In this document: positions 54,232-56,910 of the stretch, piece by piece
Layout of the letters: every line of letters starts with the position of its first letter
How positions within the stretch are numbered: position 1 is the stretch's first letter
Source: a virus
DNA: 56,980 nucleotides
Direction: 5' to 3' (one strand)
IMG/VR virus record: IMGVR_UViG_3300025632_000018
Span: 1-56,980 of that record
Made by a program: the position numbers and the translations under genes
Notes under the pieces: generated by a model
The model's database searches: none
What the model was told of the DNA's origin: nothing
The model's input: the letters and a program-made list of their open reading frames with translations, nothing else

Positions 54232-54832
54232 ATTGAAGGGAAGGTATTCTGATTTCATTGGAGAATACTCATGTGTATATTCTACGGAGTATTGTAATGA
54301 GATTATAAGGGGTTTTGATTATTATCAGGATATTGATGCAGTTTATTGTGAGGATGATCAATTTGAGAATAGTAATGCCGGTAGGTTTGATTGGGCATTA
54401 GATTTACATGATATGAGTCCGAGTATGAATGGTCCTGTATCACAACAAATGAATGAAGTATTGTTTGAATGTTTAGAAGAGTATACACAAGTCTTTGGTC
54501 ATTTAAAAATAGTACCATTTTATTCATTGGCACAAAAGATACAGAAGACACCAGCAGGAGGAGGTTATCATGTCTGGCACGATGAGAATAGTAGTGTACA
54601 AGAAGCACGAAGATCTCTTGTATGGATGATCTATTTGAATGATGATTATGAAGGAGGAGAAACAGAGTACTTGTATTATAAGAAAAGAATACAACCAGAG
54701 AGAGGTAAGTTACTTATATGGCCTGCAGGTATGACACATTGCCATAGAGGAGGATTAGTATTAAAGGGGAATAAGTATGTTGCGACAGGATGGTTCTATC
54801 TGGGAGGAATGAATTATGGAAGAGAAGAATAG
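54206..54832 (+). CDS. 2OG-Fe(II) oxygenase
   Basis: GGYHVWHDE, WMIYLNDDYEGGET, HCHRG, KYVATGW. Confidence 0.9.
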   Translation: MKDMKESTELKGRYSDFIGEYSCVYSTEYCNEIIRGFDYYQDIDAVYCEDDQFENSNAGRFDWALDLHDMSPSMNGPVSQQMNEVLFECLEEYTQVFGHLKIVPFYSLAQKIQKTPAGGGYHVWHDENSSVQEARRSLVWMIYLNDDYEGGETEYLYYKKRIQPERGKLLIWPAGMTHCHRGGLVLKGNKYVATGWFYLGGMNYGREE

Positions 54833-55094
54833 AGATGAAGACTTTCCTTCTGTTAATGAACAAGGAAAGAATTTAGCAAAGTTTACATTTGAAGTAGTCA
54901 AGAATGTAATTGATCTATCACCTAGTAATGAGAGTAAGTTACTTCTATCTAAAGAAGAACAGAAGGAAAGAATGGATATATGTAAGAAGTGTGATTATTA
55001 TAGTGTAAGACAGAATAGATGTAGACAGTGTGGTTGTTATCTGGGTACTAAGGTGAAGTTCGGTGTGAGTCAGTGTCCAATAGGTAAATGGTGA
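54816..55094 (+). CDS. Cys-rich protein (DUF6171-like), second copy
   Basis: RMDICKKC...CRQCGCYLGTK...CPIGKW. Confidence 0.6.
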   Translation: MEEKNRDEDFPSVNEQGKNLAKFTFEVVKNVIDLSPSNESKLLLSKEEQKERMDICKKCDYYSVRQNRCRQCGCYLGTKVKFGVSQCPIGKW

Positions 55095-55187
55095 ATACTA
55101 ATGAACTAATGGTAACAACGGATACATTATTGATTAAAAAATAGGTTTTAAATATGATTATAAATATAAAACTGTTTTTTACATAGT

Positions 55188-55239
55188 TGTGGAAAAGTAT
55201 TGTATTTCTGTGGATAAACCCTATTATTTGTGTGGAAAA
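55188..55239 (-). promoter_or_regulatory. Three DnaA-box consensus sites (TTWTCCACA)
   Basis: TGTGGAAAA at 55188, TGTGGATAA at 55209, TGTGGAAAA at 55231; same orientation. Confidence 0.6.
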
Positions 55240-55242
55240 CCT

Positions 55243-55307
55243 CTTATAAACCTCAGATCTTATGCCTTATAAAGTTCTTATAAACCTCAGATCTTATGCC
55301 TTATAAA
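55243..55307. repeat. Two identical 31-bp direct repeats
   Basis: CTTATAAACCTCAGATCTTATGCCTTATAAA at 55243 and 55277. Confidence 0.9.
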
Positions 55308-55335
55308 CCTTCTGAGACTTGTGACCTTTACCCGC

Positions 55336-55364
55336 AGGCTATCACACTCAGAGCATTTTGTCAA
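55336..55364 (-). promoter_or_regulatory. Minus-strand sigma70-like promoter pointing into the repeats
   Basis: TTGACA-17 nt-TAGCCT with TGn extension. Confidence 0.5.
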
Positions 55365-55452
55365 CCACCCCCGCATAAAAATTCTGAGACCCACACATTT
55401 TTTATCGTCGAGACTTATAAATAATGCTTATGGATCTCGACTAGATATGCAC

Positions 55453-55481
55453 TTGACATCTAGACGAGATAACAGTATAAT
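55453..55481 (+). promoter_or_regulatory. Consensus sigma70 promoter
   Basis: TTGACA-17 nt-TATAAT. Confidence 0.75.
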
Positions 55482-55513
55482 ATACAAGTAACATACAAAT
55501 CTCGACGAGACCC

Positions 55514-55705
55514 ATGTATTACTACGATCACAATCTCGACTATACATCATTAAGTAATGATCATAATGTATACGATCTCGACGAGATGTGTGAGACATAC
55601 ATGCATAATACATCACTAGATATGCAACTAGATGCATACGATGATGATGAGTATGCACGAGATACACATGATTACGTCGAGCTTGCATACAAACATTACG
55701 CATGA
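55514..55705 (+). CDS. Small acidic Tyr/Asp-rich protein
   Basis: ORF directly after the promoter. Confidence 0.5.
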   Translation: MYYYDHNLDYTSLSNDHNVYDLDEMCETYMHNTSLDMQLDAYDDDEYARDTHDYVELAYKHYA

Positions 55706-55735: not shown

Positions 55736-55888
55736 ATGTACGCACAGAAACGCATTGTAAGTGTTACATTAGACATTGAGTGTTATGAAGATCTAGACCT
55801 GCAGAATATCAATTGGGTTGATATCTTAGGACTAGAAGGTGATGAGAATATTGATATTAGCATCAGAGAGACTGCAGATCTATATTAG
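55736..55888 (+). CDS. Small acidic protein (50 aa)
   Basis: MYAQKRIVSVTLDIECYEDLDL; translated by hand. Confidence 0.55.
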   Translation: MYAQKRIVSVTLDIECYEDLDLQNINWVDILGLEGDENIDISIRETADLY

Positions 55889-55889
55889 T

Positions 55890-56008
55890 GTGCCAGTTCG
55901 TGGATCGGCACAGTTTAAACTAGTGTCTTGTGCCAATCGTGGAACCGTCCACTAAATGAGCACAGGGCATCGAATTCGTGTATTGTAGAAGGGTCAAAGA
56001 AATTCACC
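55890..56008 (+). promoter_or_regulatory. Early leader cassette, copy 1
   Basis: GTGCCAGT, GTGCCAAT, GTCCACT, CGTGTATTGTAGAAGGGTCAAAGAAATTCACC. Confidence 0.6.
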
Positions 56009-56182: not shown

Positions 56183-56191
56183 CAAGAATAT

Positions 56192-56271
56192 GTGCCAGTC
56201 GTAGAGGTGTCCACTAATCTCCCCACTGGCACCAAAATCGTGTATTGTAGTTAAGTCATCAGGAATTCACC
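56192..56271 (+). promoter_or_regulatory. Early leader cassette, copy 2
   Basis: GTGCCAGT..GTGTCCACT..ACTGGCAC, AAAATCGTGTATTGTAG...GGAATTCACC. Confidence 0.6.
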
Positions 56272-56702: not shown

Positions 56703-56829
56703 TGAAATTTACTCTCGTTCGTTTCAAAGGTCAATGGGTGAAAGTATCGAACAAACTATCACCTCCAAGCAACTGGGTTACAGTTATTAACTCACCTCAC
56801 ACTAAGTAACACAAACCGGTCGGCCGCGA

Positions 56830-56910
56830 GTGGACAGTTGGACAAAGTGGCATAAGGTCACGGCACAGACCCCAAAATCGTGTATTGTAGAAGGGTCAAA
56901 GGAATTCACC
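56830..56910 (+). promoter_or_regulatory. Early leader cassette, copy 3
   Basis: GTGGACAGT, AAGTGGCA, AAAATCGTGTATTGTAGAAGGGTCAAAGGAATTCACC. Confidence 0.6.

Follow-up and report, generated by a model that had tools for sequence, protein, structure and literature searches.

The intergenic region at 55095-55513 of a viral genome fragment appears to hold the best candidate for the replication start of this virus: a conserved control module in which three DnaA boxes probably make up one accessory, exchangeable cassette. As read from the sequence, the module consists of a leftward sigma70-type promoter (P_left), variable repeats, the cassette and an AT-rich block, and it lies back to back with a strong predicted early promoter (P_right). 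We tentatively propose, at somewhat less than an even chance, that it serves as an early replication start of the T4 oriF/oriG kind, that is, a promoter plus an unwinding element, helped by host DnaA. The window, i.e., the whole stretch of DNA analyzed, is the 56,980-bp record IMGVR_UViG_3300025632_000018, which is 64.2% A+T and has an IMG/VR completeness estimate of 28%. Its closest isolate is Synechococcus phage S-SKS1 (Llyrvirus, not Kyanoviridae; 208 kb; host WH7803), and it counts as an S-SKS1-like marine Synechococcus virus. Since T4-type baseplate, tail, and fibre proteins are encoded in the window and a T4 gp59-type helicase loader in S-SKS1, the original prediction of a T4-like phage is fair for the machinery, but the lineage falls outside Kyanoviridae and the record is a fragment. 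We know of no T4-like cyanophage with a mapped replication origin, and full-text literature searches for DnaA boxes or mapped replication origins in cyanophages returned no paper.

The three boxes occupy 52 bp and share one orientation. Box 1 (55188-55196) and box 3 (55231-55239) read TTTTCCACA on the minus strand and TGTGGAAAA on the plus strand, while box 2 (55209-55217) reads TTATCCACA and TGTGGATAA, respectively; box 2 starts 21 bp from box 1, and box 3 starts 22 bp from box 2. Positions, orientation, and spacings were all as originally predicted, as was the identity of the elements as DnaA boxes, each being an exact match to TTWTCCACA. The further claim that TTTTCCACA is the cyanobacterial form agrees with published work, which describes TTATCCACA as the general DnaA box and this 9-mer as its cyanobacterial counterpart (PMC4674748). 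The genome-wide count that had been proposed for TTWTNCACA was made with C at the N position, and retrieved only four exact TGTGGAWAA matches on both strands of the 56,980 bp (2.5 expected), three of which are the trio. Three or more same-strand boxes within 60 nt occurred in none of 300 Markov simulations, the analytic expectation being 1.7e-6.

Box 1 lies 2 bp from the AT block (55126-55185, no strand assigned), a candidate unwinding element of 87% A+T with flanking A-runs and T-runs. The AT-rich run announced at about 55125-55185, before the boxes, was indeed there, with 86.9% A+T as compared with 64.2% in the record; only 0.06% of 61-nt segments are equally rich. Nearest-neighbour energies further placed the least stable duplex of the whole record in the 45- and 60-nt segments starting at 55126. 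Upstream, the intergenic region is bordered by a plus-strand gene of 92 aa with a weak DUF6171 match (54816-55094), which closes a block of 2OG-Fe(II) oxygenase and Cys-rich genes. Ranking of gaps on a crude ORF map made these 419 bp (55095-55513) the largest gap free of protein and tRNA genes, so that the original description as the longest non-coding stretch is roughly right; two longer gaps in that map are a tRNA array at 27.3-27.9 kb and a segment at 12.3-13.2 kb whose minus strand appears to be coding.

Past the boxes come iteron-like tandem repeats (55243-55307, plus strand), with a 34-nt unit present twice and four CTTATAAA cores at 55243, 55266, 55277, and 55300. About 30 conserved bases separate them from P_left (55336-55364, minus strand), a predicted sigma70-type promoter with TTGACA at 55364-55359, a 17-nt spacer, and TAGCCT at 55341-55336. 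From its predicted start near 55329, the leftward path crosses first the repeats, next the boxes (at about +90 to +140), and then the AT block (about 145-200 nt away), with no ORF in it. In the opposite direction, P_right (55453-55481, plus strand) is a perfect-consensus sigma70 promoter (12/12) ahead of small early genes. Four TCTCGACGAGA-type palindromes between 55434 and 55587 bracket P_right and its 5' leader in an operator-like arrangement. The first downstream gene (55514-55705, plus strand) encodes a very acidic, Asp/Glu/Tyr-rich protein of 63 aa with no family match; it contains repeated ARDT-like units and may act as a DNA mimic or in host takeover. It is followed by a conserved 50-aa gene (55736-55888, plus strand), which served as the anchor for collecting syntenic loci. 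Farther downstream, successive small ORFs have just ahead of them a copy of a roughly 36-nt motif (core CGTGTATTGTAG ... GAATTCACC; 55973-56008, 56235-56270, and 56875-56910), and GC-rich inverted repeats or hairpin-like stretches (55890-55955, 56191-56217, and 56818-56860) precede these copies. The motif is present in many copies in S-SKS1 and is reminiscent of the cassettes, made of a promoter and a stem-loop, by which early genes are shuffled in T4-type phages.

Two other functions were considered for this DNA and found less favour. A structured non-coding RNA or a strong terminator was rejected as the main reading because the P_left transcript and the box region fold no better than shuffled sequences (z of +0.96 and +1.54, respectively) and the hairpin in the AT block is weak (-7.5 and -3.2 kcal/mol); no Rfam family was found in 54.0-57.0 kb at E up to 1. 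A late promoter in the AT block is possible but not favoured. The block does contain one copy of the T4 late-promoter consensus TATAAATA, and a second lies at 55416, upstream of P_right, so that two of the three copies in the record fall in this intergenic region. Nevertheless, three copies in 57 kb rich in structural genes are fewer than the 5.9 expected, and TATAAATA is therefore probably not the general late promoter of this phage; late promoters of the S-SKS1-like lineage probably have another consensus.

Host DnaA is the only known reader of the boxes, given that no DnaA-type DNA-binding domain was recognized in the phages: Bac_DnaA was not found in the window, nor Bac_DnaA_C in five box-bearing phage genomes, and a phage-encoded DnaA was accordingly discarded. 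It is likely that the host protein docks at the three sites, as judged from the exactness of the boxes, the conservation of the 9-mers amid drifting spacers, their helical phase, the lack of a phage DnaA domain, and their facing the DNA that is easiest to melt. A bacterial genome scan for the A-type triple array returned cyanobacteria in about 50 of 80 cases among the matches listed. Such arrays are rare in the sampled genomes, with one or few per genome and a spacing that is most often about 21 bp, the co-oriented form with this spacing being typical of cyanobacterial chromosomes. In two of five genomes tested, an array precedes dnaN by a few hundred bases, which is where an origin canonically lies. 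Cyanobacterial oriC beside dnaN (PMC4674748) shares with the phage locus the box sequences TTTTCCACA and TTATCCACA, the co-oriented spacing of about 21 bp, and a nearest box facing an AT tract, but it has 8-12 boxes and an inverted second array, whereas the phage has three boxes and no second array. In both of the cyanobacterial origins that we read, an adjacent box pair is followed by a GC cluster (GCCC), by four CTA repeats (DnaA-trios), and lastly by an AT-rich stretch. Relative to the AT block, the phage boxes are oriented like this pair; however, the phage locus has no adjacent pair, no DnaA-trio array but a single CTA, and no GC cluster between box 1 and the AT block. The predicted likeness to oriC thus extends to a cluster of consensus boxes facing an adjoining AT-rich tract, but not to these other host features, and the phage element is dispensable. 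In three small low-GC genomes of the cyanobacterial-phylum sample (L347-L349), TTTTCTACA boxes, a variant type, lie upstream of dnaN with a clear trio array and an AT tract; these genomes are probably non-photosynthetic relatives and not hosts of the phage.

A 2.40-Mb genome of 61% G+C from the cyanobacterial phylum, presumably a marine Synechococcus, has only one-mismatch boxes upstream of dnaN, and no exact box pair within 25 nt was found anywhere in it. No site there would equal the phage trio in strength, and because the origin there has one-mismatch boxes only, the phage sites would out-compete it. These features, together with the perfect consensus of all three boxes, are what a DnaA sink would draw on: three boxes in each amplifying phage genome could titrate host DnaA and stop new host rounds of replication. 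The E. coli datA locus and the DnaA-box clusters of Bacillus are such titration or inactivation sites, and resemble the trio in being high-affinity box clusters outside the chromosomal origin; datA-type function depends on IHF and on site arrangement within the chromosome. A sink is nonetheless improbable here, given that there are three sites only, that a sponge needs no fixed orientation, phasing, or adjacent unwinding element, that many relatives have no trio, and that the comparison genome is a marine Synechococcus by inference only.

Conservation of the locus was assessed first against the closest isolate. At the syntenic site of S-SKS1, near 151.4 kb of that genome, an AT core of 44 bp is identical and is followed by three boxes at spacings of 21 and 21 bp, whose spacers have diverged, then by five copies of a 22-nt repeat, and finally by P_left and P_right; the three-box element is hence present in the S-SKS1 lineage, i.e., outside Kyanoviridae. 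As a guard against circularity, further relatives were gathered independently of the boxes through the 50-aa anchor gene. Of the loci obtained, 67 extended at least 700 nt upstream of the anchor; 29 of these had at least three exact boxes, always co-oriented and 460-650 nt ahead of the anchor gene, and none was found in roughly 115 kb of downstream flank of the collected loci. Alignment of the box-bearing loci (25 distinct) revealed 9-mers that are invariant save at the W position, with diverging spacers. Start-to-start spacing of boxes 2 and 3 takes one of two values across these loci, 22 bp (two helical turns) or 31 bp (three turns), the longer distance, about one turn more, being that of one clade. 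The neighbouring tandem repeats are hypervariable among relatives in both copy number and sequence. Whole genomes hold a single cluster, comprising three of the nine boxes of S-SKS1 (208 kb) and, in a 205-kb contig, four boxes. Moreover, in all 27 distinct box-bearing loci, what is essentially the least stable 45-mer of the locus falls within the 100 nt next to box 1, and this persists even where the AT block is non-homologous. The promoters are still more widespread than the boxes: among 60 distinct related loci, with or without boxes, P_left with its invariant 17-nt spacer occurs in 53 and P_right in 56, and P_left is also found in S-SKS1, S-SM2, Bellamy, and SynMITS9220M01.

Beyond the anchored set, a pattern scan showed three-box arrays to be common among viral contigs at large, with more than 115 detected, a subset of which are Kyanoviridae-type loci homologous to that of the window. 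S-SM2 has two boxes at the syntenic site, and the freshwater T4-like Synechococcus phage DSL-LC03 has seven exact TTTTCCACA boxes at 80.1-80.6 kb (L343:2120-2160 and 2505-2580). The DSL-LC03 boxes flank a putative homologous module, with an inverted pair on one side and, on the other, one inverted box together with four direct ones spaced 16-18 bp. A 284-kb IMG/VR contig (G002) carries two separate box clusters, at 29.3-29.4 kb and 239.07-239.13 kb, the second of which matches the cluster of L042/L096; this contig may be a concatemer, a chimeric assembly, or a phage with two modules.

Conservation at the syntenic locus, which the original prediction had listed among its checks, is therefore real but partial: the 9-mers are kept in S-SKS1 and as a full trio in 25 of 53 loci that bear P_left, and the trio is absent from about half. 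Three of the remaining loci have one or two boxes, six have only the 6-nt core, and 19 have nothing box-like. Those 19 are truly box-less, as not even the TGTGGA core is present, which also disposes of degenerate boxes hidden in these alleles. The distribution of the trio among syntenic loci is all-or-none. Box-less alleles are of three types. In the first, a minus-strand GIY-YIG homing-endonuclease gene lies just downstream of P_left in place of the AT block and the boxes, in one case next to an anchor protein 100% identical to that of the window. In the second, an HNH endonuclease gene takes the same place and leaves a one-box remnant. The third retains the AT block and has other short repeats in the slot. 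The endonuclease genes are free-standing (GIY-YIG with NUMOD1, L135:144-968; HNH, L143:368-907; both minus strand), syntenic to 55100-55240, and probably driven by P_left. Conversely, some alleles keep the trio next to a non-homologous AT block. Bellamy and SynMITS9220M01 have the framework of the module without boxes, and no box cluster was found anywhere in the genome of seven of ten reference Kyanoviridae, i.e., T4-like cyanophages. The alleles with different repeats or a homing-endonuclease gene, together with these seven references, indicate that the trio is accessory, most simply one exchangeable cassette in the conserved module.

The same observations bear on two readings in which DnaA plays no part. 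As other short repeats occupy the slot in relatives (TGTGGAG-type, TGTAGATA-type, and GGTGATATT repeats, and TTGAGAAT palindromes), the slot would be a general protein-binding cassette, and the boxes might be iterons of another phage or host factor that coincide with the DnaA consensus by chance. This is quite improbable: the match covers nine of nine positions with variation confined to the one position that DnaA tolerates, no conserved flank extends beyond the 9-mer across two virus lineages, the layout is like that of cyanobacterial chromosomal arrays, 25 perfect trios stand against 19 loci without the 6-nt core, and no candidate DNA-binding gene was found among the neighbours. Alternatively, the trio could have no selected function and be a passenger kept by hitch-hiking in a recombination or homing hot spot, as the locus attracts free-standing GIY-YIG/HNH genes and exchanges cassettes. 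We regard this as very improbable, because the 9-mers stay invariant while spacers and repeats diverge, an insertion of 9-10 bp keeps the phase, and the trio or its boxes recur in Kyanoviridae contigs, S-SM2, and DSL-LC03. The box-region locus is indeed a homing hot spot in otherwise near-identical phages, and S-SRM01 has an annotated HNH gene just upstream. Collectively, the way in which the boxes are phased and oriented, their association with the least stable DNA, the exact conservation of the 9-mers, and the all-or-none distribution make a sink, another protein, or no function the less likely explanations.

In the origin reading that we prefer, the P_left transcript would run into the AT block, the candidate unwinding element, where the RNA could persist as an R-loop primer. 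DnaA would occupy a single face of the helix, pointing at the AT block from a distance of 2 bp, and could help to open this block or keep it open, making origin firing dependent on host DnaA status. Every step here, from DnaA binding and promoter activity to unwinding, R-loop formation, and a role in replication, is what we infer from the arrangement of the DNA. We know of no need of a T4-type replisome for DnaA, and the cassette, like single T4 origins, can be lost. Conservation of the same architecture in S-SKS1 despite diverged spacers speaks for an origin, and the P_left transcript is predicted to be unstructured (the z of +0.96 above), a result that an R-loop would allow but that does not amount to evidence for it. 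Against an origin, some 145-200 nt separate the AT block from the predicted P_left start, more than in the roughly 100-bp T4 minimal origins, and the trio is missing at about half of the syntenic loci, even next to a 100%-identical neighbour protein. GC/AT skew of the whole S-SKS1 genome was of no use as an origin locator, since it is monotonic and all genes are on one strand.

The closest model for this reading is provided by the R-loop origins oriF (uvsY) and oriG (gene 34) of T4, in which a promoter fires into an exchangeable A+T-rich unwinding element and single origins are dispensable (PMC3016281, Kreuzer and Brister 2010); a T4-type replisome is common to both. The T4 promoters are, however, MotA-dependent middle promoters, the element lies within the minimal origin of about 100 bp, and DnaA is not involved, whereas here a sigma70 TTGACA is followed by the AT block about 145-200 nt downstream, with repeats and three boxes in between. 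Indeed, the -35 of P_left is a perfect sigma70 TTGACA and not a MotA box, which sets it apart from MotA-dependent middle promoters. Iteron theta origins (RK2 oriV, P1 oriR, F, and pSC101; PMC4980987) offer a second parallel, with DnaA boxes, direct repeats on a helical lattice, an AT-rich element, and a promoter alongside; box position and orientation matter in these plasmid origins, and DnaA is a non-essential helper at some, e.g., R1 (PMC4980987). They differ from the phage locus in that no recognisable Rep gene lies beside its repeats, the adjacent ORFs encoding acidic proteins of 50-63 aa without family matches, and in that its repeats are hypervariable as opposed to conserved 17-22-mers. 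The replicon is also of another kind, being a lytic phage of 200 kb that brings its own helicase and loader.

Lambda provides a third comparison and, with it, the closest alternative to the origin reading. There, the promoters pO (oop) and pR lie next to ori-lambda, the leftward pO has two DnaA-protected boxes downstream beside the origin region, and host DnaA modulates origin-activating transcription (PMC3985674). Lambda nonetheless has its own initiator O, its iterons lie inside the O gene, and its DnaA sites are merely consensus-like, in contrast to the perfect, phased boxes adjoining the AT block of the phage locus. On this precedent, DnaA at the boxes could be a roadblock or regulator of the P_left transcript or of read-through from the upstream operon. 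The effect would be to shield the late and early blocks from each other, or to make early expression follow the DnaA status of the host, as at lambda pO. The boxes do lie downstream of a conserved promoter in a single orientation. P_left is probably a working promoter, since box-less alleles have a minus-strand homing-endonuclease gene after it, and extra insulation could be useful because the AT-block hairpin is weak (-7.5 kcal/mol). Such transcription control is still unlikely as the main role of the trio: the DSL-LC03 boxes occur on both sides of the module and in both orientations, a misfit with a single roadblock position; a roadblock needs no link to the least stable DNA, yet this link holds with non-homologous blocks; and the lambda arrangement is itself part of origin control.

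Taking the origin reading one step further leads to a possible but doubtful generalization, whereby some T4-like and S-SKS1-like cyanophages would have a hybrid origin that joins a T4-style promoter and unwinding element to host DnaA through a plug-in cassette copying the host box layout. Replication onset would then read the DnaA-ATP state of the host, and with it cell cycle, light, and nutrients, while phages would exchange the cassette for other factor-binding repeats or lose it to homing endonucleases. T4, the model of the group, starts replication without DnaA, and T4-like cyanophages belong to the most numerous viruses that infect the chief primary producers of the ocean. Host DnaA sites placed in a conserved module, next to the DNA that is easiest to melt, offer a precise and inexpensive experimental target, for which nature supplies controls in the form of alleles with and without boxes, some of them distinguished only by the insertion of a homing-endonuclease gene. 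Should DnaA not be used, the trio would still represent a widespread, exchangeable regulatory cassette. If it is, phage replication would be tied to the cell-cycle and energy state of the host, with a bearing on the diel dynamics of infection in the ocean.
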